DNA from: an uncultured bacterium
GTDB taxonomy: Bacteria > Babelota > Babeliae > Babelales > Vermiphilaceae
Length of the DNA stretch: 64,000 nt
Reading direction: 5' to 3'
Assembly (NCBI GenBank): GCA_963695335.1
Contig: OY968764.1
Span: 352,001-416,000, forward strand
In this document: piece after piece, positions 580 to 61,772 of the stretch
Layout of the letters: each line of letters starts with the position of its first letter
Numbering within the stretch: the stretch's first letter is position 1
The notes under the pieces: generated by a model
What the model saw: the letters and a program-made list of their open reading frames with translations, nothing else
What the model was told of the DNA's origin: nothing
The model's database searches: none
Made by a program: the position numbers and the translations under genes

Positions 580-1260
580 ATGTCTAAGAAAAGTATAATT
601 TTAATGCTTGGTGTGCTTGGTAGTACAGTATCATTACTTTCGATGAATGAAGATGATAAGCGTGCGATTCGCAAAGAGTTATATGCAAATTATGCAAATG
701 GTCGAATTAATGCCGCTACTTTGTATGAATCTGGTTTGACTTTGGAAGAAGTCATTGATCGTGATATTGATATTTTAGATGATCACAAATATGAGCTTCA
801 ATCTAGACTTGGCTTTTGTAAAGGTGCGATTAAGAGTGATTTATTTTTAGGATGTTTTTGGGGAGGATCTTTTCTTTTAGCAGGTTTTACTTGTGGCGAT
901 TCTATTGGAAAAATAGATAATATTATGCATAATGATTATCTATCTGGAAAATCAGGGGTGTGGATTGTTGATAATATTGCATATAATTTACTTTCATCTG
1001 TTGAATATAGAAGATTTGTAAAAGAGAATATGAGTTCTATTACTAAATCTGATCCTAAGATGCAATCTCTTCTTAATGTAATGCTTGTGACCGGTATAGC
1101 TACTATTGTATGCGGATTATTATTTTCTAAGAAAGTTTGTAATATTCTTGATTATGCAAAAACACTGTATAGATATATTCAAAAAACTCAGCGACGCGTT
1201 GAACGTGATCAAGCAATCATTGTGCAATTAAAAGAAATAAAGCATACTTTAGCTATTTAA
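580..1260 (+). CDS. Hypothetical exported/membrane protein, paralog of 1339..2031
   Basis: GGGGG RBS, signal peptide, two hydrophobic segments. First 41 aa and last 18 aa are identical to the neighbour. Confidence 0.8.
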   Translation: MSKKSIILMLGVLGSTVSLLSMNEDDKRAIRKELYANYANGRINAATLYESGLTLEEVIDRDIDILDDHKYELQSRLGFCKGAIKSDLFLGCFWGGSFLLAGFTCGDSIGKIDNIMHNDYLSGKSGVWIVDNIAYNLLSSVEYRRFVKENMSSITKSDPKMQSLLNVMLVTGIATIVCGLLFSKKVCNILDYAKTLYRYIQKTQRRVERDQAIIVQLKEIKHTLAI

Positions 1261-1338
1261 AATTTTACCATTTATCACAAAAGTATAGAGCTATAAATAT
1301 TAGAAAGTTTTTTTATTATCATTATTTAGGGGGCGACA

Positions 1339-2031
1339 ATGTCTAAGAAAAGTATAATTTTAATGCTTGGTGTACTTGGTAGTACAGTATCATTACTTTC
1401 GATGAATGAAGATGATAAGCGTGCGATTCGTAAAGAGTTGTATGCGAATTATGCAAATGGTCAGCTGAATGTTGTTACTTTGTCTGAAAGTGGATTAACA
1501 GTATCAGAAGTTATTGATCGTGATATTCAAATTTTATCCGAGCATAAAAATGTGTTGTTAAAAAAAATGGATGTTTATAAGAGTAGAATAGTTTGGGATC
1601 CTGCTTTTGATAAAGTGGGCATTGTTTTTTCTGGTGCTATTTTTGGATTAGCGTGTGGTGTCCATCATCTTGCTGCAGAAACAATAAGAGATTTTACTAA
1701 TAATGGTAAACTTTTAACACATACAGGTAATTGGTTTACGGATTATGTTGAATATTTTCAGATGTCAACTCGTGAATATAAAAAGTTAATTGCGCAGAAT
1801 TTAACAATTAAGGCTGCTCAAGATCCTGAAGCAGTAATAGCAGGCGCATGTCTACTTCCGGCATATGCTATTCTTTCTGTAGCAGGCGTAATATGTTTAA
1901 AGAAAATATATAACGTTATGGTGCATCCTTATAAATTACGTAGATGTCTTGTAAAAGTTAAAAATCGTTTTGATCGTGATCAAGCAATTATTGTGCAATT
2001 AAAAGAAATAAAGCATACTTTAGCTATTTAA
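1339..2031 (+). CDS. Hypothetical exported/membrane protein, paralog of 580..1260
   Basis: Same RBS and termini as 580..1260 with a divergent core. Confidence 0.8.
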   Translation: MSKKSIILMLGVLGSTVSLLSMNEDDKRAIRKELYANYANGQLNVVTLSESGLTVSEVIDRDIQILSEHKNVLLKKMDVYKSRIVWDPAFDKVGIVFSGAIFGLACGVHHLAAETIRDFTNNGKLLTHTGNWFTDYVEYFQMSTREYKKLIAQNLTIKAAQDPEAVIAGACLLPAYAILSVAGVICLKKIYNVMVHPYKLRRCLVKVKNRFDRDQAIIVQLKEIKHTLAI

Positions 2032-2049
2032 AATTTTACTCACATAAGG

Positions 2050-2610
2050 ATGATGATGAATAAATTACATGTGTTGGCATTAACAGGCTTGATGGTTTGT
2101 GGAATAAATAATGCATCAATGATGGGGCAAGAACAGAGAGAAGTTCTTTATACATTGAACACACTTGGGCAAGATTTTTCTAATGTTCCAATGATTGCTC
2201 AAAACATTGACATGTTTAAGGGTGTTCTTGAAATGAACATTCAGGTGAATGAAGCAAAGTTAAAAGATGCTAATAAGAACATGAAGACTGCATTATGGAA
2301 AAATGCATCATTATTGGCAGGTACTATAGTTGGACAATTTATATTTAATGTTGGTCTTGAAACTGCAAAAAGTGCAGCCGCTCAAGTTGGTTATAATTCT
2401 TTAAGTATGAAAACAATAACAGGGTTGCTTATTCAAGGTAGTATTACATGCAGAAGTCTAATGCATATATGTGCTGCTCTTAATATTTACGATGCAGGGA
2501 AAAACAGATCAGCATTGGTAGAAGCGATAGCTTTAGATAAAGAGATTTTAAGCAAATTAGAAGAAATCGACGCCTCCATGGACTTTCTGACAGAAACTCC
2601 AGCAGAATAA
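2050..2610 (+). CDS. Hypothetical exported/membrane protein, possible distant paralog of the two upstream genes
   Basis: Signal peptide, helix-hydrophobic-helix layout. C-terminal ALDKEILSKLEEI resembles RDQAIIVQLKEI. Confidence 0.7.
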   Translation: MMMNKLHVLALTGLMVCGINNASMMGQEQREVLYTLNTLGQDFSNVPMIAQNIDMFKGVLEMNIQVNEAKLKDANKNMKTALWKNASLLAGTIVGQFIFNVGLETAKSAAAQVGYNSLSMKTITGLLIQGSITCRSLMHICAALNIYDAGKNRSALVEAIALDKEILSKLEEIDASMDFLTETPAE

Positions 2611-2629
2611 GGCCTTTTAGTGCTTCGAT

Positions 2630-6632: not shown

Positions 6633-7673
6633 TTAAAGATTTTGATGTACATCTCTTTGTGTTTGGTTTTTTTCAAGCATGAGTATCAGATTATCAATTG
6701 TTTCCCGTTTATCTTTTAAAGTGAGTAATACATCTTGATTGAATCCTTCTTGTTTACAAAGATAGATAAACTTGTTGAGCGCATCTTCCGTAAAGCTACC
6801 AACGTTATCATGAGTTTGCTGATTCCAATTGAATAATAAGTTCATCGCGCGCTTAAGTGCTTTATCAGGATCTGCTCCATTATTTATGAATTGCTGCATA
6901 AGGTCAGGGTTATATTTTTTGTTTTTATGCATGCATGCTATTAATCCATTACTGAGTTCATCGGGGGTAGAAAGAGGAATTGTAAAGTCTATAAGCTTTT
7001 GTTGTGTGATGATTTTTTTCCAAAGGGCTACTGTTTTTTTTGTTGGATATTGTAACAGTGTGATGATGAGATTGTCTATATTGGGTCTGCTTACCATCAT
7101 CAATAATCCTCCTAGAATGTCATATTTATTATGATCTATTCCTAGTTCGAGTAATTTTTTGACATTGTTGAGGGCGCGAATTTTATCATTGCACCGGTAT
7201 TTGGTACACCAATGTTTTAAGAGAGGTTCTGTATTTGCTTTTTTATAGTAAAGACTAGCCCCGTGTTCGAGTAATATTTCAATTCTATCTGGTGTAAGGT
7301 CATAGTCATATAATTCATCAGAAAGAGCTAAACATTTTTGAGCTCCAGGGAAGCTTAATTTTTGTGCTTCATGGCGGGTAAAATCTTCATTATTGCGACA
7401 TAAAACACGTAAGATTATCTTGTTAGCGGTGACTGAATCGTTTCTTTCTTTATGAAGTTCTTTGTATAAATCCCAATTTATAAAACTAACATAACCAATA
7501 ATACGAGAAGTTTCTTGAGCACGAAATTCTTTATTATAATAAGATGCAACGTAAAGATGGACATTTTGAGCAAGTTCAAGAAGAATCTTTTTTTTTAGCT
7601 CATCTATTTCCATGCCCAAAACGTTTGAATTGAGTAAAAATAAGAAAAACAAAGATTGAACTAATTTTTTCAT
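6633..7673 (-). CDS. Exported ankyrin-like repeat protein
   Basis: Signal peptide ending VLG-ME. Degenerate ankyrin motifs LLEHGAS, LLELGID, FINNGADPD. Confidence 0.7.
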   Translation of the reverse strand: MKKLVQSLFFLFLLNSNVLGMEIDELKKKILLELAQNVHLYVASYYNKEFRAQETSRIIGYVSFINWDLYKELHKERNDSVTANKIILRVLCRNNEDFTRHEAQKLSFPGAQKCLALSDELYDYDLTPDRIEILLEHGASLYYKKANTEPLLKHWCTKYRCNDKIRALNNVKKLLELGIDHNKYDILGGLLMMVSRPNIDNLIITLLQYPTKKTVALWKKIITQQKLIDFTIPLSTPDELSNGLIACMHKNKKYNPDLMQQFINNGADPDKALKRAMNLLFNWNQQTHDNVGSFTEDALNKFIYLCKQEGFNQDVLLTLKDKRETIDNLILMLEKNQTQRDVHQNL

Positions 7674-7707
7674 TGCCAACTTTCATTGTATAAAGAATAA
7701 GTTGTTT

Positions 7708-8675
7708 TTATTTGGGACTATTTTTTTTTAGATCGTTTTCTATTGCTATTAATATGTTTTTTAATTCGGATATTTTCTCTAAAGCTTCTTTATTAAAAGC
7801 ACCATAGTTCTCAATAAGACAATGCAGAATGAGGACATATGTTTGAGAAATTGGAAATGCTTTTTGTGTGATGTAATCAAGAGAATTATTACTATAACGA
7901 TTGGCGCCATTTTCAAACAAATAGTTTATAATTTCAGGATTTGATATTTCGTATTTTATGCATTCATTTAATCCTTGATTTGCAGTTATAAGTCCTAATT
8001 TGAGCAATGTTTTGATTGAGTCAAAATTTTCCTGAGCAAAAGATTCGCCTATAGTAAACTCCTTTATACGGCGCTCTTGTAATGTAGCAACTTTGGGCTT
8101 TTCATAGGGTAGTAAGAGTTGAATCATTGGAGAATCATTATTGCGTACGGCGATTTCCAAAGGAGTTTCTATTGTGTCAGGAATATTGTGCAGTTTTGCA
8201 CCATGTTTAATGATTTGTGCCATATTTTTAACACCTTGTTCTGTTGCGTTCATGGCAAAATAGATTGGTAATATTATTGTTTCTGGAGCATATTTATCAT
8301 GGCGAGGAGGGTGATAATTAACATTGGCACCTTGTTGTATCAATTCATCTATTTCGCTTTCAGTAATTTTATGGGTATAAAGTTTTTCACTTAAAGCATC
8401 TATGTATTGTCGTAAAAAAAATATTCTCCGGTTATTGGGTCGTATCGCTCGGCTTTTACTTCTATAAATCTTGGCTTATAACTTTCTTTGGCGTAAAGTT
8501 GATCATGAAAGAGACTTAATCTTTGTGATTGTGATAATTCTGCTATTTTTATTGTCATATAGTTTTGCTTATCAGGTTGCTCAGAGAAGTCTGTTGTTTG
8601 CTCTTCTCGTTCCATGCTGTGTATGTTGTGAGTGCAGCAGAAGATTGATAGTATTGCTGCAGAAAGTTTTTTCAT
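7708..8675 (-). pseudogene. Frameshifted ankyrin-like exported protein (ORFs 8400-8675 and 7708-8343)
   Basis: The paralog motif DALSEKLY follows the first ORF in another frame. The break is at an A8 run (8414-8421). Confidence 0.75.
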
Positions 8676-8755
8676 AACAAGATCCTTTTGCAGAGATTAA
8701 TTATATCGTTGGAATTATAGTATTAATTTTTAGTTTTTTAAAATAAAAAAATCCT

Positions 8756-8814
8756 CCCTACTTCGCCAAGGCTTCCTACTTCGTTAAAACTACGAAGGAC
8801 ACGTCGTAGGGCAA
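8756..8814. repeat. Family B palindromic element with a second B copy nested (about 8774-8803)
   Basis: CCCTACTTCGCCAAGGCT[TCCTACTTCGTTAAAACTACGAAGGACACG]TCGTAGGGCAAG, lying within an ATCCTC...GAGGAT stem. Confidence 0.75.
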
Positions 8815-9191: not shown

Positions 9192-10041
9192 GGTTCTGTT
9201 GAGTTTTTGAAAAGATAAGTTTTGAAGTATGATAACACCGAAAAAGCAAAAACCAAATCACTAAAACGGTGCTATCATGAAAAAAGAGTATATCAGCGAA
9301 ATGGCCTGGAGCAAAATTTTTAATTTTTTAAAACAGCAAAAAAACATTTATATAAAAGAAGAAAAGGACTGTAAAAAGTTTATAGAAGGGACATTTTGGA
9401 TGGCAAGAACAGGAGCACAATGGAGAGAGTTGCCGGAAAAATATGGAAATTGGAATAGTGTGTTCAGCAGATTTAATGCTTGGTCAAAAAAACATATTTG
9501 GGAAAAATTACTCAGTTTTTGTGCAGAGGATCCCGATATGGAATATGTAATGATTGATGCCACGATAGTCCGCGCACATGCCTGTTCTGCTGGATATGAT
9601 CAATTTAAAAATGAAGGACTGGGAAGAAGTAAAGGTGGTTTTACAAGTAAGATACATGCAACAGTAGATGCTTTAGGCAATCCTTTAAGATTTGTTATTA
9701 CTCCTGGTCAGCGTAATGATATTACTCAGGCTGATATTTTATTAAAAGATATTTCTGAATCATATGTAATAGCGGATAAAGGATATGATTCCACTGAATT
9801 ACGTTCGAAATTAATAGAAAAAAATTGTGTTCCCGTTATTCCTCCAAGATCCAATCGTAAAGAACAATATCAATATGATGAACATCTATATAAAGAGAGA
9901 CATGCGATTGAATGCTTGTTTTCAAAGATAAAACACTTTAGAAGAGTGTTTGCTCGTTTTGATAAATCGGCACGAAATTTTTTATCTTTTCTTTCTTTTG
10001 TGGGAACTTGCATATGGTTACGATGAAAACTCAACAGAACC
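9192..10041 (+). mobile_element. IS5-family insertion sequence (850 bp)
   Basis: Perfect 16-bp TIRs GGTTCTGTTGAGTTTT / AAAACTCAACAGAACC. TA duplication in a CTAG context. Confidence 0.93.
9277..10026 (+). CDS. IS5-family DDE transposase
   Basis: RTGAQWRELP, IDAT, GRSKGGFTSKIH, ADKGYD, YKERHAIECLF. Confidence 0.95.
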   Translation: MKKEYISEMAWSKIFNFLKQQKNIYIKEEKDCKKFIEGTFWMARTGAQWRELPEKYGNWNSVFSRFNAWSKKHIWEKLLSFCAEDPDMEYVMIDATIVRAHACSAGYDQFKNEGLGRSKGGFTSKIHATVDALGNPLRFVITPGQRNDITQADILLKDISESYVIADKGYDSTELRSKLIEKNCVPVIPPRSNRKEQYQYDEHLYKERHAIECLFSKIKHFRRVFARFDKSARNFLSFLSFVGTCIWLR

Positions 10042-10643
10042 TAGATATGAGATATTCTCTTATTTTTTGTTCTTGGCTATCGGTTGTCCATGTACATGGT
10101 TCACCATCTCGGTCTTCAGTTGTTGTATATATTGTTACCACAGGATCTTCGTAAGGAATAAGAAGTTGAATCATTTTTGAAAGATCTGCATTTGATTTTC
10201 CTACATAACCACCACCTTCTAATGCAATTGTTAGAGGAGTGCTTTGTTGATCTTCAAGATTATGAATTGTTGCTCCAAGATTTATCATTGTTTGCATATT
10301 TTTTATACCCTGTGGACTTCCATCACAAGCAAAACGAAATATTACCGGACCGCTATTTCCTGGTCTTTGGTAATTAACTTGAGCTCCTTGTTTTACTAAT
10401 TCTCGTATTTGAGTGTCTGTGATGTTTTTATCGTAAAGTTTTTCACTCAGAGCATCGAATGTTTTTAATATTGGGGTTTGTTTAGGATGCTCACTGATAT
10501 CTTTAATAATGATTGGATATCCACAATCATCAGAAGATGGTGTGCCAAGTTCCATGCTATGCGTTTGTTGTGTGCAGCATGCGATTGTGAGAAGTGCTAT
10601 GGAGAATTTTTTCATCGAGAAATCCTTTTTTTGAGATTGTTAT

Positions 10644-11447
10644 TTATTGCAACGATTGTAAATCATTCATAACATTTTTGATTGTATCTGCTGTAGTACG
10701 TATTGTTTCTTTACTTTTAGAAACTTTATCCATGAGTTGGAAAATAATATCGCTAATATTAGTAGCACCATAAGAAAGAAGAAGATCAAGAATTTCTTTA
10801 TTTGATTGCATACACTGAACAAATTCTTTTAGCCCACGATTAGCTGTCATGAGTTTTAATTTAAGTAATAATTCAATCATAGGGATGTTTTGATTCTTAA
10901 AAAATTGACGTATTATATATTCTCTCAGTTCTTTTTCTGAGTAATCATAATCTCTATGAGTGATGCCATCGTTGTCATGATATGTACTTTCATATATTGT
11001 CACTGTAGGGTTTTCATGATGTAGGAGTAATGTAATCATATCTGTTGAATTGTATTGTACAGCTATATCAAGAGGAAAATGTCCTCCAGGTACACGGTGA
11101 TGAATGTCTGCTTTAAGCTCTATGATTGTTTCCATATTTTTTACACCTTGTTTAGTTCTATCAAAAGCAAAATGGACTGCTATTGCGTATACATATTCTC
11201 CTTTATAATTAAGTATAGCTCCTTTGCTTACCAACTCTCGTATTTCAGTATCAGTGATATGGTCTTTGTAAAGTTGTTCACTGAAATGATTGCGCTTTTT
11301 TGATATTGGGGATTGTGGACGATCGTTATATGGTTTGGCTATTACTTGATATCCGCAATCATCAGAAGATGGTGTGCCAAGTTCCATGCTGTGTATTTGT
11401 TGTGTGCAGCATACGATTGTGAGAAGTGCTATGGAGAGTTTGTTCAT
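10644..11447 (-). CDS. Exported ankyrin-like repeat protein, intact member of the tandem family
   Basis: Signal peptide ending IHS-ME. FPLDIAV, LLLSYGA. N-terminus nearly identical to the gene starting at 10615. Confidence 0.8.
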   Translation of the reverse strand: MNKLSIALLTIVCCTQQIHSMELGTPSSDDCGYQVIAKPYNDRPQSPISKKRNHFSEQLYKDHITDTEIRELVSKGAILNYKGEYVYAIAVHFAFDRTKQGVKNMETIIELKADIHHRVPGGHFPLDIAVQYNSTDMITLLLHHENPTVTIYESTYHDNDGITHRDYDYSEKELREYIIRQFFKNQNIPMIELLLKLKLMTANRGLKEFVQCMQSNKEILDLLLSYGATNISDIIFQLMDKVSKSKETIRTTADTIKNVMNDLQSLQ

Positions 11448-11593: not shown

Positions 11594-11842
11594 TTAAGAA
11601 ATAATACATTTACATGCATCATCGTCATCATCATTCTTTTGTTTTTTTTCTAAAGCTTTTTTCTTTTCAAATTCTGAAGCAGCATTTGCTTTTAATTCTC
11701 TAAAAGTATCACGAGCATTTTCATCAGTCTTTTTTCTATGGAATTGACTAAGGAGCATGAATTCATTTGGATCCATAGTAAAAATGAATGATTGATGGAA
11801 TAAAAAAACAAAACAGATTGATGCAAGCAATATATGTTTCAT
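11594..11842 (-). CDS. Small exported protein ending in a CaaX motif (CIIS)
   Basis: Signal peptide, basic stretch, Asp run, C-terminal CKCIIS. Starts 4 bp after the gatB stop. Confidence 0.65.
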   Translation of the reverse strand: MKHILLASICFVFLFHQSFIFTMDPNEFMLLSQFHRKKTDENARDTFRELKANAASEFEKKKALEKKQKNDDDDDACKCIIS

Positions 11843-17892: not shown

Positions 17893-17923
17893 TTTACCCT
17901 TCGAAGCCTTGGCGGAGTAGGGC
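17893..17923. repeat. Family B element in frame in the Nudix gene (PYSAKASKGK)
   Basis: TTACCCTTCGAAGCCTTGGCGGAGTAGGGC. Confidence 0.8.
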
Positions 17924-18319: not shown

Positions 18320-19102
18320 TTATTGTTGATACGATACCTTATAGTGTCTTATTTTTTCTTGTTCGCCTTGTTTATATGGCATATCAAGAAAATAAAAACG
18401 TAATTTTGAAACCAAAAATGGTCGTAAAGTGATCTGTTCTTCATGAAAAGTATTTGTTTTTGGATCTAAAACTTTTGCTTGTACATGAGTGTTTTTTGAA
18501 TCTGTACTATGAATTATTGCATTCTTTAAATTTTCTAATGTCACTTCAGCTATTCTATCTTTTTCAAGTGTACATCGACCGCGTCTACAAATCCCAAGGG
18601 CTTCATAACGTTTTTTTTCTTTTTCTATGGCTTGATAGAAGTTATTGAATAGCATGTTTGCTGCGTGTATATCAAAATTAACCATGTAGGTAACATTGCT
18701 TGCGCCTCGACTTTCTGGATTATGAGGATCTTTATCTTTTGAATATGCAATGACAAGGGTTGTATTGTTTCTTTTTGGGTCTATAAAGTTTTCTGCATCT
18801 TCTACATTCCATCCAAGTGTTTCTTTTAAGATAGCTTCTTCCCAAAATTCTCGAGCAGCAGATTGTATAGGATGGGTTTCATGGGGCTCTCTACCACCGC
18901 TAAAATCATCGTATGTATGCTTATCTTTACCTCTTGCTTCTCTTGTTAAAATAACACATTGTTGATTGTTGGAATTTGTATAAATGGGAAGAACAGAACT
19001 TGCTCTATTGGCGTATGAAGCTAAGTTAAATTGTTGTGGCTCCATAGCAAAACTGTTTGTTATAAAAAATATGGCTAAACTACTTTTTACTATTTTAAGC
19101 AT
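18320..19102 (-). CDS. Exported Nudix-like hydrolase
   Basis: Signal peptide ending SFA-ME. SVLPI...ILTRE...DFSGGREPHETHPIQSAAREFWEE Nudix box. Confidence 0.8.
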   Translation of the reverse strand: MLKIVKSSLAIFFITNSFAMEPQQFNLASYANRASSVLPIYTNSNNQQCVILTREARGKDKHTYDDFSGGREPHETHPIQSAAREFWEEAILKETLGWNVEDAENFIDPKRNNTTLVIAYSKDKDPHNPESRGASNVTYMVNFDIHAANMLFNNFYQAIEKEKKRYEALGICRRGRCTLEKDRIAEVTLENLKNAIIHSTDSKNTHVQAKVLDPKTNTFHEEQITLRPFLVSKLRFYFLDMPYKQGEQEKIRHYKVSYQQ

Positions 19103-19118: not shown

Positions 19119-20093
19119 TTATTGTCGAAATATTGTGTAATGTCTTATTTTTTTATCTTCGCCTTGATCGTATTGCATATCAAGAAAATATGGTCGTAAC
19201 TTTTCAACTAAAAATGGTCGTAATGTAATCTGTTCTTTATAAAATTTATCTGTTCTGGGATTTAAAACATTTGCTTGTACGCGAACAGCTTTAGAATTTG
19301 TATTCTGTATTACAGCTTCCTTAAGGTCATCGTATAACACGGAAGCAATTTTATCTTTTTCTGTGGTATGCTGATGATGTCTGGGGATATGATTTTCTCT
19401 GTTATATTTTTTTTCTGCAGTTAAAGCGCCATAGAAATTGTGTAATAATTGATCTGCGTATTTATCAAAATCAACAATATAAGTGACATTTCTTACGTCT
19501 CTACTATTTGGTCTTTCTGGGTTTTTATCTTTTGAATATGCAATAACAGTGATTGTGTTACTGTTTTTACTGTTTAAAAAGCGAATGGTATCTTTTAAGT
19601 TCCAGTTTAAAGTTCTTTGTAAAATTCCTTCTTCATGAAATTCTCGAGCAGCAGATATTTTAGGATGCTTATCTGTTTTTTCTCTTCCTCCACTAAAATC
19701 ATCATATTTTCGTTTTTCTTTACCTCGCGCTTCTCTTGTGAGGATAACATATCTTTTTCCTTTAGGACCGGTATATATTGGCAAAACAGATCCAGATCTA
19801 TTGTTATATTCTGCAAGGCTAAACGATTTTGGTTGAGCTTTAAATAAATATGATAAAGGACTTATTTCTTCAGAAGAGAATTCGTTACCAACATTTTCAC
19901 AAGAAGTTTCTTCAGATGAGCTTTCTGTAAAGCTAAAGTCTGATTTTTTTTTCTGCTGTGATCGTTTTACAAGACTTTTAGCAGCTATTCTTTTTGTGGT
20001 TTCAGGTTCCATTGCAATAGCGGTAACAATCGTAAGCATTGCACATAAAGGTAGTAACCTTGCTAATAAGCTATTTTTTATTGTTTTAAACAT
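19119..20093 (-). CDS. Exported Nudix-like hydrolase with basic and Ser/Glu-rich N-terminal extension
   Basis: Signal peptide ending AIA-ME. DFSGGREKTDKHPKISAAREFHEEG. Confidence 0.8.
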   Translation of the reverse strand: MFKTIKNSLLARLLPLCAMLTIVTAIAMEPETTKRIAAKSLVKRSQQKKKSDFSFTESSSEETSCENVGNEFSSEEISPLSYLFKAQPKSFSLAEYNNRSGSVLPIYTGPKGKRYVILTREARGKEKRKYDDFSGGREKTDKHPKISAAREFHEEGILQRTLNWNLKDTIRFLNSKNSNTITVIAYSKDKNPERPNSRDVRNVTYIVDFDKYADQLLHNFYGALTAEKKYNRENHIPRHHQHTTEKDKIASVLYDDLKEAVIQNTNSKAVRVQANVLNPRTDKFYKEQITLRPFLVEKLRPYFLDMQYDQGEDKKIRHYTIFRQ

Positions 20094-23321: not shown

Positions 23322-23936
23322 TTAGTTTGCAGAGTAAGGCTTAAAGTTTGGATTACGTTTTTTGCGTATTGCATTCAGTTGGTCTATATGTTCATTTCTT
23401 AAGTGGCGTAGACCTATGAAGGTAGTTTCAGCATCCTTGTTTATCTCTATTTCTCTTTTCTTTTGTTCAAGTTGATCTTTTGCTGTTAGATATCTTAGTG
23501 GAATAGTTTCTTTTCTTGCAAGATCATCAGTTAAGTTAACAGCATTATGAATAATAGTGATACCAGAAGCGATTTCTTCTAATTGACGACCAATCGTAGG
23601 TTTATCATCATATCGGATATCTAATTCTCTTTTTACTAGTTCAAGAACAGCATCACTTCCTGCTTTTGCACAGAATTCCATGAATCCTCTTGTTGCATGA
23701 TCACCAATGGTGCTTGCCATTCTATATTGAATACTGTTGTCACGAATGTATTTATCTTCTTTTGCTTGCGCCATTCTTTCTCTAGAATCAGTTTTTTTTT
23801 CTTTTTGTGACTTTTCTTGTTCTTCTGATGATTGGTCTTGCTGTGCATTGTCTCGTGGACTTTCCATACAAATAGTCTGGGTTGCGATAGCAAATAGTGC
23901 TACTAAAAGACAATGTGATTTTGATATATATGCCAT
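23322..23936 (-). CDS. Hypothetical exported protein
   Basis: Signal peptide ending TIC-ME, followed by charged helices. Confidence 0.7.
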   Translation of the reverse strand: MAYISKSHCLLVALFAIATQTICMESPRDNAQQDQSSEEQEKSQKEKKTDSRERMAQAKEDKYIRDNSIQYRMASTIGDHATRGFMEFCAKAGSDAVLELVKRELDIRYDDKPTIGRQLEEIASGITIIHNAVNLTDDLARKETIPLRYLTAKDQLEQKKREIEINKDAETTFIGLRHLRNEHIDQLNAIRKKRNPNFKPYSAN

Positions 23937-23948: not shown

Positions 23949-24896
23949 TTATGGATGATAGGGGATTTTTGCTAATTTTGTTTCTATATATAAGGCTGTT
24001 TTTCGAGCGCTTGCAACACAGATATCACGAAGTATATTTTCATCTTCTGATCTTGGCATTACTTGCGCAAATGTTTTATGGCACAGTGCAGCCCCAAGAC
24101 CATGCCCCATTACCGGCAGGGTTGTTGAGCATAAAAAATGCCCAGCATATGTAAGAGCCGAAGGATTATTTATCTGTTCTATTCTTTCACTTCTTTTTTC
24201 ATGAATACTTTTCACTATATTATTTAAGTGATCTGCGCCTGTATCAGAACCTAACAATGGCTGAAGAATGGTAAAGAAATTGGCTTTTTGTTTTTGTATT
24301 TCACTTTCTTCGTCTTGTATTTTATCAGGATGGAAACGCAAACTTTGTTTTTTGTATAATTTGCTATTTTCATCAAGTTGTTCTTGGGTGGTCGCAGTAA
24401 GATAGAGGGCTTCAAGAAGGAAGGTTAATTTGTCTAAGCTGTTTTGAGCATTAGCGAAATTGCTTTGTTTTTCATTTTCTATTGCATGTTCATATTGTAA
24501 TGCAAGACCTTCTTGGAGATTTAAAGATTTTAATAAAACTGTATGAGGCTCATTACTATTCACTACATTGCGTTGAGTGTAGTTGAGTACATGAGTTATT
24601 GCAGCAATTTTATTTTTGGTTTCTGTAAGATCTTGTGCGTGATGATTCCCGGAAGTGCGATATTCTTGTAGATCTTCTTGGTATTGATGAAGAGATTGAG
24701 CAGCATTATCTAGAAGAGTTTCTCTCGGCAAAGATAATAGTTCTGCCAAATAAACTGATTGCTTATCAATTTGATATTTAATAATCATATCTTTGATGGT
24801 GCTTTTTGAAAGATGCTCTATTTCTTGCATAGCATATAATGATGAAATAGGTGCAGCCAAGAAACTACAGAGTAAAAGTTTTATATATTTAATCAT
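23949..24896 (-). CDS. Exported protein with a J-domain-like HPD motif
   Basis: Signal peptide ending LYA-MQ. KLYKKQSLRFHPDK...KANFF. Confidence 0.65.
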   Translation of the reverse strand: MIKYIKLLLCSFLAAPISSLYAMQEIEHLSKSTIKDMIIKYQIDKQSVYLAELLSLPRETLLDNAAQSLHQYQEDLQEYRTSGNHHAQDLTETKNKIAAITHVLNYTQRNVVNSNEPHTVLLKSLNLQEGLALQYEHAIENEKQSNFANAQNSLDKLTFLLEALYLTATTQEQLDENSKLYKKQSLRFHPDKIQDEESEIQKQKANFFTILQPLLGSDTGADHLNNIVKSIHEKRSERIEQINNPSALTYAGHFLCSTTLPVMGHGLGAALCHKTFAQVMPRSEDENILRDICVASARKTALYIETKLAKIPYHP

Positions 24897-32715: not shown

Positions 32716-33006
32716 ATGAAAAGCATAAAAAATTTACTTGTTATGGGTGTAATTTTAGTAATCGCATTTGCATCAGTTCAAATGTCTGCAATGGAAGAAG
32801 GTCGACGAGTAAATCCTAAACTTAGCGCAGCGAATAGAGAATTGCTTGAGATGCGTATTAAGAATATGGAAAAAACTATCAAGTCATCAAATCAGTTTAC
32901 TCTTGAGGAAAAAGCAGATGAGATAAAGAGGCTTGAAAACGCCAAACATATGTATTATGGAAACTATCCTTATAGTAGGTTCGATATATTGCGTACCGAT
33001 TTATAA
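32716..33006 (+). CDS. Small exported protein, 'YGN' family
   Basis: MKSIKNLL...SA-ME, NPKLS, YYGNYPY. AGGAG RBS. Confidence 0.75.
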   Translation: MKSIKNLLVMGVILVIAFASVQMSAMEEGRRVNPKLSAANRELLEMRIKNMEKTIKSSNQFTLEEKADEIKRLENAKHMYYGNYPYSRFDILRTDL

Positions 33007-33180: not shown

Positions 33181-33468
33181 ATGAAAAGCATAAAAAATTT
33201 ACTTGTTATGAGTATAGCTTTAACAGTTATATTATGTACATCAGTGCAAACGATTGCGATGGTAAAAGAAGAGAATAAGCTTTTAAGTACAGCACAGAAA
33301 GAACAACTTAGGGATGCTCTTATATCGAAAGACGAGTTCTTAAGTTCAAGAAAAAGAAATCCAGTAATGGCGAAAAAAGTAGAAGCGCAAAAGAAAGCAA
33401 TAGAAAAAATACTTTATGGTGATCAACTTTATGATAAAGATGACATATTTGTTGCGATATATTTATAA
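33181..33468 (+). CDS. Small exported protein, 'YGN' family
   Basis: MKSIKNLL..., ILYGDQLY. Confidence 0.75.
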   Translation: MKSIKNLLVMSIALTVILCTSVQTIAMVKEENKLLSTAQKEQLRDALISKDEFLSSRKRNPVMAKKVEAQKKAIEKILYGDQLYDKDDIFVAIYL

Positions 33469-39426: not shown

Positions 39427-40131
39427 ATGAAGATAAGCAAGAATAATGTGTTTATTGTGGGATTGTTAATAGTTGCTGGAAGCATGAATGCAATGGAAGT
39501 GTTTCCTTTCAGTAGCTTACCATATGATTTGCAAAAAGATATCAGGGTTGTGATACTTAAGAATGAAATAAACAATTTGCCAAAAACAGTTGATTCAGTT
39601 GTGATAATAGGAAAGAAAATTAATGACTTTTCTTTAGTAGATAAAGCTTTTAATCAAACGGTTAATGAACCAACATTCTGTCTTAAATTAATAAAAAACA
39701 TTGCGCGTGGTCTTGACCTTTCTGATACGAACGTAGCTGAAACTTTGAAAACAGCATGTGCTCAAAAACGTTTGAGACTTCAAAATCAATTAAAGGATTG
39801 TTTGTCTACAAAAAATGTTTCAATAAGTTTATTGAACAAGCTTTTGCAAGAAGGAGCTGATATAGAATGGACTTATGATGATGGTACATTGTTATGGATG
39901 GCAGTGCAGAATTATAATGAAAATGCACTTAAGGTTCTTGCTAGCCGTGCTAATGTAAATAGGCCTACAGGTAAGACGTTTCCTACTATATTGGATTATA
40001 TTGTAATGAATTTTGGTAAAGATTTAATTAAAATGTTCTTATCCGCGGGAGCTGATGTTAATAAGCTTGATCCTAATAATCGAAACAATGAAAAGCTTCA
40101 ACAAGCTTTAGCTGAAATGGGTAGAAGATAA
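39427..40131 (+). CDS. Exported ankyrin-repeat protein with an F-box-like N-terminus
   Basis: MNA-ME, FSSLPYDLQKDI, LLQEGADIE, TLLWMAV, FLSAGADVN. Confidence 0.75.
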   Translation: MKISKNNVFIVGLLIVAGSMNAMEVFPFSSLPYDLQKDIRVVILKNEINNLPKTVDSVVIIGKKINDFSLVDKAFNQTVNEPTFCLKLIKNIARGLDLSDTNVAETLKTACAQKRLRLQNQLKDCLSTKNVSISLLNKLLQEGADIEWTYDDGTLLWMAVQNYNENALKVLASRANVNRPTGKTFPTILDYIVMNFGKDLIKMFLSAGADVNKLDPNNRNNEKLQQALAEMGRR

Positions 40132-49162: not shown

Positions 49163-49453
49163 TTATTCATATATTGCGGCATGAATTTCTTGTATAGTAT
49201 ATGGTCGATTTCCATAAAGTATTTGTTTACATGCTTTCAGTTGTGCTTGTGTTTCTTTTATACTTTCTAAAGAATTGTGTTTTGGATCTAAATAAGCACC
49301 TTCCGTATATCTGATAGCTTCCTTAAGTTCGTTTTTGTCTTCCTGACTTAAGTAAGGATTTTCTCTTCTTTCCATTGCAGTCACTTGAATTGATGCAAAC
49401 GACGTTATTGTCAGGACTATGCCTGTAATGAGTAAGTTTTTTGTACTTTTCAT
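49163..49453 (-). CDS. Small exported protein, 'YGN' family
   Basis: Mature part nearly identical to 49879-50169. Confidence 0.8.
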   Translation of the reverse strand: MKSTKNLLITGIVLTITSFASIQVTAMERRENPYLSQEDKNELKEAIRYTEGAYLDPKHNSLESIKETQAQLKACKQILYGNRPYTIQEIHAAIYE

Positions 49454-49463: not shown

Positions 49464-49805
49464 TTAAATACTTGGGTAAATTATATTTGATATTTCATTA
49501 TCGGTATAAGCTCTGTTGCCATAATATATTTCTTTTATGCGTTCAACGCGTTGTTTTTCTGATTGTATTTTTTGATTAAACACTACTTTGTTTCGTAAAG
49601 ATTCTGAAGCTGCTCCTTGCCCTTGGCTGAATAGTTGTATTCCTTGTGCTGCAGCTGCGACAGCGAGTTCAAGATCATGTTTTTGCTTATTGCTTAGGTA
49701 AGGATTTACCGATTTATTCAGTTCCATTGCAGATATTTGAACCGATGCAAATAACGTGATTGCAAGAGCTACGCCTGTAATAAGTAAGTTTTTTGTATTT
49801 TTCAT
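49464..49805 (-). CDS. Small exported protein, 'YGN' family
   Basis: Start MKNTKNLL at 49805 with AGGAG RBS. NPYLS, YYGNRAY. Confidence 0.8.
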   Translation of the reverse strand: MKNTKNLLITGVALAITLFASVQISAMELNKSVNPYLSNKQKHDLELAVAAAAQGIQLFSQGQGAASESLRNKVVFNQKIQSEKQRVERIKEIYYGNRAYTDNEISNIIYPSI

Positions 49806-49878: not shown

Positions 49879-50169
49879 TTATTCATATATTGCGGCATGA
49901 ATCTCTTGTATAGTATATGGTCGATTTCCATAAAGTATTTGTTTACATGCTTTAAGTTGTGCTTGTGTTTCTTTTATACTTTCTAAAGAATTGTGTTTTG
50001 GATCTAAATAAGCACCTTCCGTATATCTGATAGCTTCCTTAAGTTCGTTTTTGTTTTCCTGACTTAAGTAAGGATTTTCTCTTCTTGCCATTGCAGTTAC
50101 CTGAACTGACGAAAATAATGTGATTGCCAGGGCTATGCCTGTAATAAGTAAGTTTTTTGTGTTTTTCAT
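49879..50169 (-). CDS. Small exported protein, 'YGN' family
   Basis: Duplicate of 49163-49453. Confidence 0.8.
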   Translation of the reverse strand: MKNTKNLLITGIALAITLFSSVQVTAMARRENPYLSQENKNELKEAIRYTEGAYLDPKHNSLESIKETQAQLKACKQILYGNRPYTIQEIHAAIYE

Positions 50170-50503: not shown

Positions 50504-50803
50504 TTATTGATAAAAAGCGGCATACCGTACGTCAGCTTCGTCATAAGCTTCATTGCCGTAATACATTTTTTCAAAACGTTTAAGTTTTTGTTGTGCTTCT
50601 TTGAGTTCTTCGGGTGTGTAAACAAATCCGGATTTTGGATCTAGCTGTTGTGTTTGGGCCCCAATATGTCGTTCAAGTGCTCTTTTTGCACCCGGAGTTA
50701 AATTAGGATTTACTCTTGATGCCATTGCAGTCACTTGAACTGATGCAAACAATGCAGTCGCCAGGACTATGCCTGTAATGAGTAAGTTTTTGGTGTTTTT
50801 CAT
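50504..50803 (-). CDS. Small exported protein, 'YGN' family
   Basis: MKNTKNLL, NPNLT, YYGNEAY. Confidence 0.8.
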   Translation of the reverse strand: MKNTKNLLITGIVLATALFASVQVTAMASRVNPNLTPGAKRALERHIGAQTQQLDPKSGFVYTPEELKEAQQKLKRFEKMYYGNEAYDEADVRYAAFYQ

Positions 50804-52506: not shown

Positions 52507-53292
52507 ATGAGTATCAATAAAGTAATGGTATATGTTTTTTGTGTAGTGATGAGTGCAACGGTCTCTGCAATGGAATTGGAAAAATCACAAGATGCAAAAA
52601 GAACACGACCAAAAGATATTCTAAATAGACCTGTAGAAAGTTCGTCCCCTTCATATAGTTTTTCTTTTTCATTGCCAACATTCGCAACCGTTGGTAATGG
52701 TGTGAATTCATTAGTCACCACCATTAACAACTATTGGTACGATGAAGAAGCTTTTAAAAAGTTGGGTTGGCCTACGCATGATAAAATAGCGCAACAAGAA
52801 TTGGCAAATACCCTTGTAATTTATAAGAGAATTAATAGCTATTTTCAAACACGTGAACTGTATGATGATTTAACAGAAGACCGTAGAGCAATTGGTAGAA
52901 GATATGGATATTGTCAACGCGTGTTAGAAGCTTTGCCTCAAATTGCTAAAAGATCTGAAGCTCTTGAATTGGCAACATTCTGCTTAAAGCATCATGGTGA
53001 AGCTATGAATAATTTTGTTAAAAGTGAGTTTTTATTATTTGTAGCGGTGGAAACAAACAAATCAACACAAGAAGTACAAAAAGCTGATTCAGAAGTAGCA
53101 CAATTAAAAATAGTTCCTGAGGGTAATGAACTTTTGAATAATTTGTTTTTACAAACAGCTCGAGAAACATTAAAAAAAGAAGAAGAAGAAAAAAAGCGCA
53201 AAGAGAAAGAAGAACAAGAGAGACTAGAAAAAGAAGAGAAAAAGCGAAAAGAAAAAAAAGAAGAAAGTAAAAAAAATAATGGTAACAAATGA
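52507..53292 (+). CDS. Hypothetical exported protein with a Lys/Glu-rich tail
   Basis: Signal peptide ending VSA-ME. KE-rich C-terminus. Stop overlaps the gpmI start. Confidence 0.75.
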   Translation: MSINKVMVYVFCVVMSATVSAMELEKSQDAKRTRPKDILNRPVESSSPSYSFSFSLPTFATVGNGVNSLVTTINNYWYDEEAFKKLGWPTHDKIAQQELANTLVIYKRINSYFQTRELYDDLTEDRRAIGRRYGYCQRVLEALPQIAKRSEALELATFCLKHHGEAMNNFVKSEFLLFVAVETNKSTQEVQKADSEVAQLKIVPEGNELLNNLFLQTARETLKKEEEEKKRKEKEEQERLEKEEKKRKEKKEESKKNNGNK

Positions 53293-54845: not shown

Positions 54846-54875
54846 CCTGCCCGCCGTAGCTTTATGCGAAGGAGG
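54846..54875. repeat. Family B element that supplies the C-terminus and stop codon of the GNAT gene
   Basis: CCTGCCCGCCGTAGCTTTATGCGAAGGAGG. The minus strand reads PSFA*. Confidence 0.75.
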
Positions 54876-55428
54876 GCCAGTATTCAAAGAACACATAACC
54901 ATTGTCATCAAACTTCTCTTTAAACCCAAGTTCTTTATAAACTTTCTGTGCAGGAAAATTACTGACGCGTGTCCATAATGCAATGTGCGTTGCACCCAGA
55001 TTAAACATCTGTTTCATTGCGTATTCTGCTAACAATTTACCATATCCTTTACCACGGAACTCATGCGTAACTGCCAAGAAAAGTATTCTACCTTCTTGTG
55101 CGTTTTCCATAAAATATGCAGTGAAACCGGCCAACTTGTTGTCTTGATAAAGAACTTTAATATGCAGTGATCCAAAATGCATAGGATTAGCATCAGGTGT
55201 GCGGTGTTTGATCATAAATGCAGGGGACGATTCTTCACTTGCAAGTAACCAGTACCAATTTTGATGGAAGATATCCATAATTGCTTGTGTGTCACGTGTG
55301 ACATTAAAATCGTAGATTGGGCCTTGAGTAGTTTGTTGGTGTTGTTGGTGAATATAAAGGCTAATTCCGCTACATGTTGCAGCGATGATGCTTATTGATA
55401 AAATTATTTTTTTTGTACGGGTTGTCAT
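54862..55428 (-). CDS. GNAT-family acetyltransferase with an N-terminal membrane anchor
   Basis: LAVTHEFRGKGYGK, NFPAQKVYKELGF. Confidence 0.85.
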   Translation of the reverse strand: MTTRTKKIILSISIIAATCSGISLYIHQQHQQTTQGPIYDFNVTRDTQAIMDIFHQNWYWLLASEESSPAFMIKHRTPDANPMHFGSLHIKVLYQDNKLAGFTAYFMENAQEGRILFLAVTHEFRGKGYGKLLAEYAMKQMFNLGATHIALWTRVSNFPAQKVYKELGFKEKFDDNGYVFFEYWPSFA

Positions 55429-57086: not shown

Positions 57087-57518
57087 TTATTGTTGTGCAG
57101 TTGGCGTCGACCATGGGTGCATAAAATAGAAATAAGATGCGATACTCGCGACGATTACAAACGCTGCTGCAGCTTTCATCCTAGTACTTATGCTTGAAAA
57201 GTAACCCGTATTGTTTTCTTTTGGAGTAATTTCTTGTATGTATATTTGTTTGATAGCTTTTGTTTTTTCTGGGAGACTTAGTTTAGGCGATTCAGTTATA
57301 GAGCTCAATAGATCAGTTACATCTGTGCTATGTTTATCGGGTTTGCTAAATATTTTTCTGATCCATGTAGCAATGTTTTTTGGTTCAGATTCTTCTGTTT
57401 CTATTCTATCTAAAGAATTAGCAAACTCTAAGAGTTGTTGAGGTTCAGATGCGCAGAGTTGTGTATCACTTCCGAATATTAGCGCTGTCATTAAAAGTAA
57501 CTTTTTTACGATAGTCAT
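57087..57518 (-). CDS. Hypothetical exported protein with a C-terminal TM anchor
   Basis: Signal peptide, terminal AAAAFVIVASIASYFYF. Confidence 0.65.
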   Translation of the reverse strand: MTIVKKLLLMTALIFGSDTQLCASEPQQLLEFANSLDRIETEESEPKNIATWIRKIFSKPDKHSTDVTDLLSSITESPKLSLPEKTKAIKQIYIQEITPKENNTGYFSSISTRMKAAAAFVIVASIASYFYFMHPWSTPTAQQ

Positions 57519-59485: not shown

Positions 59486-59573
59486 TGCTTTATATCTCCT
59501 TAGAATGTGGCTATACTTACAGTAAATATTTGAAACTCTGTATTATTTCTAATTGTACGCATCTTGACGTCCT

Positions 59574-60311
59574 TTGTCAAATGGAAATGAAAAATCTATG
59601 GTCAAAATTAGACAAACAGGCAAGATAAAAAAAAACTCGTATGAAGCGGCTGCATGGAGCCAAAACGCAGTTGTTGTGGGCATTGATGAGGTTGGTAGAG
59701 GTTGTATCGCAGGCCCTGTGGTTGCTGCAGCGGCAATCTTACCCCTTAGCAAGGCGCATCGTAAGCTTAAAGACTCAAAAATCATGACTCAGCAAGAACG
59801 GGAAGATGCTTTTCGGTGGATTGCAAAACATTGTGCGTATGGCGTGGGGGTTGTGCATCATCGTATTATTGATCAGCGCAATATTTATCATGCAACGCTT
59901 ATTGCCATGAAAAAAGCACTGGTTAATCTTCTTGCAGTGTCATCTCAGCGGCCAACAGCTATTTTGACTGATGCTATGCCACTCGATTTAGCCGATACCC
60001 ATTTTGATGATATTCCTGTCTATTATTTCCCTAAAGGTGAATCCAAATCAAGTTCTATTGCTGCTGCATCTATTGTTGCAAAGGTTACCAGAGACGCCAT
60101 GATGGGCATATATGATAAGGTAATCCCTGGTTATCAATGGGTTGATAATAAAGGATATAGAACGCCTGTACATAAGCGTGCGGTCAAAGAGGGACAGCAT
60201 TCCATTATTCATAGGTTGCGGTATTTGGAGAATATAGAGAATAGGGAAGAAGTAGTAGAAGCGCAGTTATTAATAGGTGGTAGTGATGAACAAGGGCAGC
60301 TGTTTTGCTGA
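59574..60311 (+). CDS. rnhB: Ribonuclease HII
   Basis: GIDEVGRGCIAGPV, LKDSK, IAAASIVAKVTRD, NKGY. Start may be ATG at 59598. Confidence 0.95.
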   Translation: MSNGNEKSMVKIRQTGKIKKNSYEAAAWSQNAVVVGIDEVGRGCIAGPVVAAAAILPLSKAHRKLKDSKIMTQQEREDAFRWIAKHCAYGVGVVHHRIIDQRNIYHATLIAMKKALVNLLAVSSQRPTAILTDAMPLDLADTHFDDIPVYYFPKGESKSSSIAAASIVAKVTRDAMMGIYDKVIPGYQWVDNKGYRTPVHKRAVKEGQHSIIHRLRYLENIENREEVVEAQLLIGGSDEQGQLFC

Positions 60312-60900
60312 AGTAATTGAAAGCTCTTTAACCGGTTGGTTAGCGCAAAGCTGGGCATGGGATACGTTCCCAGAATTTGGCTCATTTGTAGCAATTGAAG
60401 GTAAAAAACGTACTGTGTTTGGAATTGTGCACCAAGTGCAAACTGGTTCCATGGATTCAGTGCGATATCCATTTCCCTATCAAAAAACAGAAGAAGAGCT
60501 GCTCAAAGAGCAACCGCAAATATTTGAATTTCTTAAAACAACCTTTTCATGTATCACCGTTGGGTATCAAGAAAAAAAATCAATATCATATCTTATCGCA
60601 CCAGAACCACCTAAAATTCATGCCTTTGTTGCACATCCCAGTACCGAATTAAGTAAAAACTTCTTTGCAAGCACTCGCTACATGCATCTTCTTTTTACGC
60701 ATTCTGCACAAATTTTTAATATGGATGAGTTGATGCTTGCATTATTAAAGCAACATATTGAGCTTAAGATCTTGACTCAAGATAAAATCAATTCGTTTAT
60801 GCAAACCTATTCGCTACTCACCGGCAATGATTATCGGCGTATTAAACTATTCTTACAACGAGCTGAGCATATGCTTGGCAATAATCAATTAGAATTCTAG
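60286..60900 (+). CDS. HAS-barrel-like protein
   Basis: AEVIES, PEFGSFV, VFGIV, EQPQIFEFL, PPKIHAFV. Family assignment is from recall of the motif pattern. Confidence 0.6.
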   Translation: MNKGSCFAEVIESSLTGWLAQSWAWDTFPEFGSFVAIEGKKRTVFGIVHQVQTGSMDSVRYPFPYQKTEEELLKEQPQIFEFLKTTFSCITVGYQEKKSISYLIAPEPPKIHAFVAHPSTELSKNFFASTRYMHLLFTHSAQIFNMDELMLALLKQHIELKILTQDKINSFMQTYSLLTGNDYRRIKLFLQRAEHMLGNNQLEF

Positions 60901-60974
60901 CGCACTTGATGTGCGTGCAGTTGCGTAGTAAAATAGAAAAATTATCTTATAGTTTTTAATTTCGTAGGATCGTA

Positions 60975-61772
60975 ATGAAAAGTTCTCATCAGATTATTTT
61001 TTTATTGAGTTATTGTATGTTTGGTACCGTTATTGCAATGGAAAAAGAATCCATCCAAAAGTTGAGTACAAAAGATACACGGTTTGTTGATGTTGTTAAT
61101 TATAAAGTTGTTGATAAGTTTGTGGATGGATATCCTATTCATTACGATAGTAAGTACGAGGTTCAGAAATATCACAAAGATACTATTTCTTTTGCTTTTC
61201 CTGTTAAATCCCTTGGTTTATTGCCCATCGAGTATTATGGTGAAAAAAGATTTTTTAATATATTGCCTGATTACTTTACAGGACCTTTAGGTAATCGAGG
61301 AGATATATTTACTGTTGCTGATCCTGCAATCAGACAGGCAGCTGTTGTTGGTGGAACTGTGCAATATCATGATAACACAATAGGTCGCATATATCTGTAT
61401 TTGGGATTTAATGTGAGTAATTTTAGATCTCTGCATAAAGGGCGTGAGAAAATTTATCCGGCAACAGTTATGGCTTTGCAGCTTATCAAAGAAGAGACAG
61501 AATATACACCTCGGTTGTCAAAATGGCATGCATTCGACGGTGTGATGCCTTTTGATGATACAGATATGATAGAAGAAGTTAAAAAACAACGTCCTGAAAC
61601 AAAAATCTCTGATTGGGATGATATTTTAGTGCGTTCTCTTATGAAAAAGTTACTTGGTAGAAATTTTCGTGATTTTAATTTTGAAGCGCGAATTTTTACA
61701 GAAAGTTATTGGAATAAAAGAGAAAAGGCGTTCAAAGAGATCATGAATAGTTCTGAAGAGAGTAAAAAATAG
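60975..61772 (+). CDS. Hypothetical exported protein
   Basis: Signal peptide ending VIA-ME. Confidence 0.7.
   Translation: MKSSHQIIFLLSYCMFGTVIAMEKESIQKLSTKDTRFVDVVNYKVVDKFVDGYPIHYDSKYEVQKYHKDTISFAFPVKSLGLLPIEYYGEKRFFNILPDYFTGPLGNRGDIFTVADPAIRQAAVVGGTVQYHDNTIGRIYLYLGFNVSNFRSLHKGREKIYPATVMALQLIKEETEYTPRLSKWHAFDGVMPFDDTDMIEEVKKQRPETKISDWDDILVRSLMKKLLGRNFRDFNFEARIFTESYWNKREKAFKEIMNSSEESKK

Follow-up and report, generated by a model that had tools for sequence, protein, structure and literature searches.

The Q-rule of Bacteroidetes is a lineage-wide fixed residue behind the signal peptidase I cut: Gln occupies position +1, the first residue left by the cut, in about 71% of substrates, envelope housekeeping proteins included, where it is thought to stabilise the N-terminus and is matched by a membrane-bound modifying enzyme, an inner-membrane glutaminyl cyclase (PMC10653852). 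In the intracellular parasite Plasmodium, cleavage of the Plasmodium export element/host-targeting signal (PEXEL/HT) exposes an N-terminus with an acidic second residue on host-bound proteins, and N-acetylation follows cleavage (PMC3567231, PMC10038149). The present analysis concerns a comparable pattern in a stretch of 64,000 nucleotides, the window (GCA_963695335.1, contig OY968764.1, positions 352,001 to 416,000), from an uncultured bacterium of the phylum Babelota (Dependentiae; family Vermiphilaceae), where a first-pass annotation had noticed a second Met, mostly followed by Glu, directly behind the signal peptides of about 21 exported proteins. This +1 Met pattern is real, genome-wide, biased towards certain protein classes, conserved, and occurs in several families within one branch of the phylum; its working resembles that of the Q-rule and of the cleaved PEXEL end, but it belongs to neither.

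The phylum, as yet barely studied, consists of intracellular parasites of protists; in Dependentiae about 40% of genes encode exported proteins, of which most have no known domains, and the only system in the described isolates is of type II. Type II secretion was earlier proposed for the phylum (PMC4378268, PMC4776705), outer-membrane vesicles were observed in Chromulinavorax, and a cultured member grows in the host cytoplasm, wrapped by a mitochondrion (PMC6561590). The accounts of Babela and Chromulinavorax, from the same phylum and likewise proposing type II secretion, report signal peptides on 79/126 and 78% of ankyrin proteins, respectively; the word methionine is absent from both main texts, and the portions available mention neither a +1 rule nor a presequence (PMC4378268, PMC6561590). 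In the searched, mainly open literature (Babela and Chromulinavorax supplements aside) a +1 Met rule is nowhere described for the phylum, and the accessible parts of 10.64898/2026.03.27.714854 and PMC5911502 contain nothing on it.

The genome around the window (G000; relatives are coded G### and families f1 to f18; loci are coded L###) is a single contig of 1.37 Mb with a G+C content of 35.7%, and is 94% complete; those homologues of the window's proteins that have names bear the label Candidatus Babeliales or Dependentiae. Its 1254 genes were called with a codon and ribosome-site model of our own, blind to signal-peptide information, and 518 of them (41%, near the 44% reported for Chromulinavorax, PMC6561590) show the basic n-region and hydrophobic h-region required by our heuristic. 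This heuristic, used in place of SignalP for both signal peptides and cut sites, scores Met as Ala, admits some false positives (e.g. Pth, G6PD and MiaA) and misses some true cases. Cut sites were placed with an untrained (-3,-1) matrix blind to +1, and with a second matrix whose training on Met-anchored sites makes it partly circular. On Bacteroidota loci the pipeline returns Gln as the top +1 residue (12/35), i.e. it recovers the known Q-rule.

With the untrained matrix, Met stands at the predicted +1 in 154/518 signal-peptide-like proteins, the counts at offsets -4 to +5 being 10, 13, 14, 1, 154, 26, 32, 28, 25 and 14, so that the placement proposed by the first-pass annotation coincides with the predicted signal peptidase I site (154 vs 1–32 at neighbouring offsets). 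The trained matrix gives 204 of 503 non-lipoproteins, or 227 when near-best sites are included. In signal-peptide-like proteins Met follows (-3,-1)-compatible sites in 219/1498 cases (14.6%), compared with 221/8862 (2.5%) at other positions and 46/1687 (2.7%) after compatible sites of other proteins. A small residue followed by Met-Glu occurs in 118/518 proteins vs a shuffle mean of 6.4 (maximum 14), and the -1 residue is Ala, Ser, Gly, Cys or Thr in 292/420 Met contexts. Glu is found at +2 in 126/227 Met starts and at +4 in 74/261, giving the consensus Met-Glu-x-Glu. Ser-Glu forms a smaller second class (31 observed; shuffle mean 12.8, maximum 23). Starts with Lys-Gln or Lys-Val ahead of a basic, proline-rich stretch were also seen (window 33613, 34874 and 36297; L014:3138-5473; L094:4-639); as a class they are not established, because the 13 observed lie within the shuffle maximum of 14 (mean 6.9).

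Within the window, the second Met is present in 21/21 of the proteins concerned, as residue 20–28 (Table 1); 19 are among the called genes, 18 pass the heuristic, and signal features can be seen by eye in all 21. To call these proteins unrelated was an overstatement, since they collapse into 12 sequence families. Across the genome, the 204 Met proteins form 127 families, 102 of them singletons.

The pattern is strongly dependent on protein class. A Pfam scan covered 512 of the 518 signal-peptide-like proteins and mapped 42 ankyrin genes; after one anchored and one signal-less gene were dropped, Met occupies +1 in 33/40 ankyrin proteins with a cleavable signal, in 13/13 WD40 proteins (one anchored dropped; two with an unusual -1 residue) and in the 1/1 leucine-rich-repeat (LRR) protein, i.e. 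in 47/54, read by eye, vs 3/15 cleavable envelope proteins (Fisher p = 2e-6). The enrichment in proteins with eukaryote-like domains over periplasmic housekeeping proteins, which the first-pass annotation had put forward as a check, is thus borne out. The envelope set comprises BamA, BamD-like, Skp, TolB-like, Prc, two DegP, amidase, SpoIID-like, M48, two MetA-type barrels, a secretin, a beta-lactamase-fold protein and GH3; lipoproteins and signal-anchored proteins were left out, because peptidase I does not set their +1. On the same grounds the controls first named, i.e. Pal (with a lipobox) and the ABC-binding and FtsQ-like proteins (with uncleaved-type anchors), are invalid. Most Met-class proteins have no Pfam match. 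Nine large signal-peptide proteins with collagen and/or S74-chaperone domains (L002-L004, L102, L116-L117), probably surface fibres, have the Met in 0/9; two of them start with Ser-Glu. Envelope housekeeping proteins are avoided here (3/15), unlike in the Q-rule, from which the pattern also differs in its residue, in its share of substrates (about 30–45%) and in its proposed reader, the host (PMC10653852). It differs from PEXEL in belonging to a bacterium and in having its first residue fixed as Met (PMC3567231, PMC10038149); Arg at -3 and Leu at -1 are outside the nine commonest residues at those positions, so there is no plasmepsin-type site.

Among 31 paralogue pairs below 85% identity, the +1 residue is identical in 87% and the +2 residue in 77%, and the remaining positions from -10 to +15 in 35–55%. 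A Shine-Dalgarno-like box precedes the first ATG in 216/261 genes and the second in 2/261, below the 5.4% of ordinary internal ATGs, and on this ground the second ATG was rejected as a translation start. That these genes have dual starts, yielding exported and cytoplasmic isoforms, or that the second Met is the true start, is accordingly highly improbable, even with GalU and GlmU being single-copy and presumably needed inside the cell.

The same genes bear on the origin of the Met. It might be a scar of gene capture, i.e. the old start codon of whole open reading frames (ORFs) before which signal cassettes were fused, as the first-pass annotation had offered as an alternative. Housekeeping enzymes with fused signal peptides would fit this, and in GlmU, with a purine-rich box upstream, the second Met may be the native start at the junction. 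In GalU, however, 8 genomes of the genus retain the native Met four residues behind the cut, 6/8 of them with Met at +1, and in two exported copies of dTMP kinase (G000, G138) the Met-Glu lies three to five residues ahead of the housekeeping start (the third copy, that of G087, no longer has the Met). Similar signal DNA is shared by only 30 gene pairs among 503 genes, so no common cassette emerges, although 7 of the 30 lack detectable homology of the mature domains, the likeness stopping at the cut in some. Furthermore, Glu is residue 2 in only 46/736 cytoplasmic proteins, and conservation of the Met is about double that of its neighbours. A capture scar is on balance quite unlikely: being conserved, lacking a ribosome-binding site and standing upstream of the native start in two enzymes, the +1 Met can be taken neither for a second start nor for just a fusion scar.

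Signal peptides are found on a set of normally cytoplasmic enzymes. The set (G000, outside the window, at 1126799, 591430, 229487, 230376, 273187, 1078537, 1131184 and 543580) comprises single-copy GalU, GlmU, PyrF, a PyrD-PyrE fusion, UDP-glucose dehydrogenase and myo-inositol oxygenase, the intact phosphoenolpyruvate (PEP) synthase and a duplicate dTMP kinase. It suggests metabolism outsourced to the host or to an inclusion; several enzymes (dTMP kinase, GalU, PEP synthase) use nucleotides and therefore need a cytosol-like destination.

The range of the pattern was followed with a profile of 30 columns spanning the end of the signal and the Met-acid start, which is blind to Met starts without the acid. 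On held-out proteins (E up to 0.1) it matches 38/157 Met and 1/276 non-Met proteins. It was run on a further 150 genomes from the phylum, scoring no more than 54 candidates in each; a genome with 15 or more matches is termed motif-rich. Motif-rich genomes number 48/150: 26/54 in f1, 7/7 in f2, 4/7 in f7, 8/20 in f8 and one each in f13, f17 and f18, with none among those profiled from f3-f6, f9-f12 and f14-f16. Family f2 had at one stage been taken to lack the motif (0/7 in samples of 60–80 kb); this was overturned by 28–49 matches in all seven of its genomes, which also indicates that small samples under-detect the motif. Outside the phylum, the untrained pipeline places Met at +1 in 1/121 proteins of outgroup loci from five phyla (Bacteroidota 0/35, Acidobacteriota 0/62, Chlamydiota 0/12, Planctomycetota 1/8, Myxococcota 0/4). 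For convergence elsewhere, the profile gave at most three matches in 100 scored Chlamydiota genomes and 0–3 in four other outgroup genomes, negatives that are weak for distant lineages because it was trained on this genome's signal peptides. A search of 50% clusters with the short profile yielded just two repeat-protein matches, an ankyrin query in named genomes no match, and a plasmid search five weak records; the nucleotide-transporter family here is too divergent to be linked to outgroups.

A preference of the lineage's signal peptidase I or Sec for Met-Glu behind the cut would be in keeping with a single signal peptidase I gene serving all substrates and with acid residues being common at +1/+2 of non-Met proteins too; it is nevertheless quite improbable, given that the same peptidase must process the envelope proteins, 12/15 of which lack the Met, and that match counts run from 0 to >50 between genomes of one family.

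On the best reading of these data, export by Sec followed by signal peptidase I cleavage would yield an N-terminus of eukaryotic style that makes the protein stable in the host and directs it to organelles. It is moderately probable that the second Met has been selected as a new N-terminus for proteins working inside the eukaryotic host. Translation would start at the first ATG and Sec would carry the protein over the inner membrane, where the single signal peptidase I is predicted to cut behind a small residue and expose the Met. The protein would then leave by a type II system built on a secretin, or inside outer-membrane vesicles, and reach the host cytoplasm, resembling there a product of host translation. 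Two secretins are present, so the undescribed effector route suggested at first is not needed; FHIPEP, TrbI and VipB have no match in this 94% complete genome. With a large polar residue (Glu, Asp, Lys, Gln) behind the Met, the end would be spared by host methionine aminopeptidase and present no Arg/N-degron, so that the protein would last; Ser-Glu would be a smaller class of the same kind, and N-terminal acetylation an optional extra.

The residues behind the Met bear on this proposal. At +2, Asp, Glu, Asn and Gln account for 163/227 starts (54.5 expected; Glu, Asp and Gln, the residues found at +2 in PEXEL, for 157/227), Asp is enriched (19 vs 4.1 expected), and small residues, next to which the Met would be trimmed by host methionine aminopeptidase, are depleted (16/101 non-Glu starts vs 38 expected), a bias that agrees with the rules for a retained initiator Met and for Arg/N-degrons. 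These ends resemble those of NatB/NatC substrates, with Met-Glu/Asp/Gln/Asn dominant here and Met-Lys/Leu next in order, and the Ser-Glu starts correspond to NatA-type ends. In contrast to those substrates, on which host enzymes act at the ribosome, the N-terminus here would arise after export; since NatB is co-translational, host NatB is an unlikely acetylator of finished imported proteins (PMC11735805), which leaves that part of the host-mimicry idea in the first-pass annotation unsupported.

Further support for host mimicry comes from a subclass in which the Met would head a basic, acid-free stretch addressing the protein to the host mitochondrion. Mitochondrial presequences are known on bacterial effectors of type III/IV systems, with no Sec signal in front. 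With a filter of at least three basic and no acidic residues over +3 to +22, which are stated features of mitochondrial presequences (PMC3097184), 19/82 non-acidic Met starts are presequence-like vs 2/145 Met-acid starts; the figures are 10/21 for Met-hydrophobic starts, 9/276 for non-Met starts and 8/180 for comparable non-Met starts, and, counted by family, 17/67 non-acidic Met vs 6/157 comparable non-Met (p = 5e-6). The helical moment of the set averages 0.55 vs 0.44–0.45, and its members include one enoyl-CoA hydratase and one protein with a J domain. Several of the stretches end in RRSFSY, IRSFST or QRFY, which we take to be processing-site-like. Presequence-like proteins include those at G000 162084, 737341, 738103, 895917 and 1028625, L076:44-679 and L059:2606-3136. 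An atlas lookup of one presequence-bearing protein gave no usable match. Among relatives, 4/33 non-acidic Met starts pass the filter vs 10/229 non-Met starts, in G018 (f1), G019 (f7, two) and G137 (f18), the clear cases being those of G137, ankyrin-like in appearance, and G019. This presequence-like continuation, found also in two other families, is new here. The bipartite signal-plus-transit presequences of complex-plastid algae (10.64898/2026.03.27.714854) offer a parallel, with the direction reversed here, from bacterial gene to host organelle. Starts with Met-Lys-Arg were also considered as nuclear localisation signals and rejected, a bipartite pattern of our own fitting 1/27.

Several observations count against the reading of the Met as a host-directed N-terminus. 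An acid just behind the signal peptide is generally preferred, and Glu at +2 may reflect just that. Many genomes of the phylum, among them most of those in f3, f4, f5 and f14, contain little of the motif. Three envelope proteins (BamD-like, one DegP and GH3) bear the Met, and 7/40 ankyrin proteins and several exported enzymes do not; the classes were assigned by eye, with cut sites placed heuristically. Of cytoplasmic N-termini, 49/584 (8%) are presequence-like as well, and an Arg cleavage-type motif (own pattern) occurs in only 5 of the 19 presequence-like cases.

The main function of the new N-terminus might instead be that of a sorting tag, recognised in the periplasm by the type II machinery or a vesicle-loading factor. 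Such a tag would carry the same protein-class bias and would profit from the strong Met-Glu-x-Glu consensus, and in Plasmodium the cleaved N-terminus suffices for export (PMC3567231). On the other hand, no single consensus covers the Met-Leu, Met-Lys, Met-Arg and Ser-Glu starts, the Met is missing from surface fibre proteins and from many enzymes that are probably secreted, and the presequence subclass is left unexplained. Taken as the main role, a sorting tag is unlikely; it can hold together with the host N-terminus explanation.

A candidate for the optional acetylation is a membrane-anchored GNAT acetyltransferase encoded in the window (Table 1). The protein has 188 residues; its basic N-terminus and single membrane helix are shared by 30 aligned orthologues, which places its catalytic domain, by prediction, outside the inner membrane. 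The GNAT fold with its acetyl-CoA motif is present; profile matches are led by NAA30, RimI and archaeal N-terminal acetyltransferases, the RimI model scores 53.6 bits, below its 86.4 cut-off, and structural Z scores of 18.5 for Ard1 (root-mean-square deviation 1.8, 138 aligned), 18.2 for NatC and 18.1 for PA4794 amount to a tie with other GNATs. The acetyl-CoA transporter PF13000 (Acatn family) has no match in this genome. The gene is found in 122/151 genomes, nearly always as a single copy, and in none of f6, f9-f12, f15 and f16. All 48 motif-rich genomes have it and none of the 29 genomes lacking it is motif-rich (maximum 14 matches); 73/121 of the GNAT-bearing genomes are motif-poor. In a valyl-tRNA synthetase (ValRS) tree of 21 genomes, GNAT-bearing and GNAT-lacking families lie on opposite sides of one branch (100/100), so the association counts as one event. 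The GNAT is thus a candidate N-terminal capping enzyme, its activity putative, and a lead only; where the Q-rule has a membrane-bound modifying enzyme, the enzyme link here is this candidate (PMC10653852). The Plasmodium endoplasmic reticulum acetyltransferase candidate, which turned out not to be the acetylator, advises caution (PMC3567231, PMC10038149). It is doubtful that one large Babelota branch applies to its exported proteome a complete N-terminal address code of eukaryotic style, made up of the Met regenerated by signal peptidase I, its own outward-facing N-acetyltransferase capping Met-Glu and Ser-Glu in the manner of host N-terminal acetyltransferases, and a Met-presequence class bound for the host mitochondrion. 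Two further GNATs carry cleavable-looking signal peptides (L111:8476-9078 and L112:13476-14483).

Hundreds of exported proteins in this bacterium and many relatives thus appear to be built for a host-like new start after cutting, usually Met-Glu and sometimes Met with a mitochondrial address. The +1 Met rule offers a way to sort candidate host-directed proteins from envelope proteins by sequence only and, for a phylum already known to remodel host mitochondria, a short list of candidates directed to the mitochondrion. If the proposal is true, a bacterium fits its signal-peptide cut sites to the N-degron and import rules of its host.

Table 1. Features of the window with the residues behind the signal peptide and the position of the second Met codon.
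Coordinates	Strand	Feature	Start	Met codon	Basis
580..1260	+	exported protein	Met-Asn	643	motif in sequence
1339..2031	+	paralogue of 580	Met-Asn	1402	motif in sequence
2050..2610	+	exported protein, approximate cut	Met-Met	2119	motif in sequence
6633..7673	-	exported protein	Met-Glu	7613	motif; G138 homologue keeps Met-Glu
8400..8675	-	short ORF, 91 aa, probably broken paralogue of 10615/11447	Met-Glu	8615	motif, length
10031..10615	-	exported protein	Met-Glu	10555	motif in sequence
10644..11447	-	exported protein	Met-Glu	11387	motif in sequence
11594..11842	-	small exported protein	Met-Asp	11776	motif in sequence
18320..19102	-	exported protein	Met-Glu	19045	motif in sequence
19119..20093	-	paralogue of 19102	Met-Glu	20012	motif in sequence
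23322..23936	-	exported protein	Met-Glu	23867	motif in sequence
23949..24896	-	exported protein	Met-Gln	24830	motif in sequence
32716..33006	+	small-protein family member	Met-Glu	32791	motif in sequence
33181..33468	+	small-protein family member	Met-Val	33259	motif in sequence
39427..40131	+	ankyrin-repeat protein	Met-Glu	39493	Pfam scan, motif
49163..49453	-	small-protein family member	Met-Glu	49375	motif in sequence
49464..49805	-	small-protein family member	Met-Glu	49727	motif in sequence
49879..50169	-	small-protein family member	Met-Ala	50091	motif in sequence
50504..50803	-	small-protein family member	Met-Ala	50725	motif in sequence
52507..53292	+	exported protein	Met-Glu	52570	motif in sequence
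54862..55428	-	GNAT acetyltransferase, one N-terminal membrane helix, predicted outward-facing			Pfam, profiles, alignment, structure comparison
57087..57518	-	example of smaller class of predicted mature starts	Ser-Glu		predicted cut
60975..61772	+	exported protein	Met-Glu	61038	motif in sequence

Other features of the window and genome were recorded alongside. An Rfam search gave one tRNA as its sole match. Two transposase-like ORFs (family names being working labels) lie at 7708-10026 and 17152-17580; the one at 9277 stands inside the 7673-11447 paralogue array, beside the split ORFs 7708, 8400 and 8861. At 33613-39305, three paralogues (33613, 34874 and 37956) have a common His-Gly/Thr motif, presumably that of ADP-ribosyltransferases, and 36297-37799 has a kinase-like His-Gly-Asp-Leu-His motif; all four have signal peptides, with no +1 Met and no Pfam match at 1e-5. 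The ankyrin proteins at 39427-40131 and L107:7838-9454 have Leu-Pro-x-Glu/Asp behind Met-Glu, which we take to resemble the start of an F-box. Polymorphic-toxin-like domains (CdiA RNase A, Ntox21 and a weak Tle3) are found on signal-peptide proteins at L108:16812-18752, L120:4952-6778 and L016:4-837, in a genome where VipB has no match. Three tandem exported paralogues at 17611-20093 carry a Gly-Gly-x-Glu/Asp motif, presumably as in Nudix hydrolases, and their orthologues alternate between Met, other and lipoprotein-like starts.

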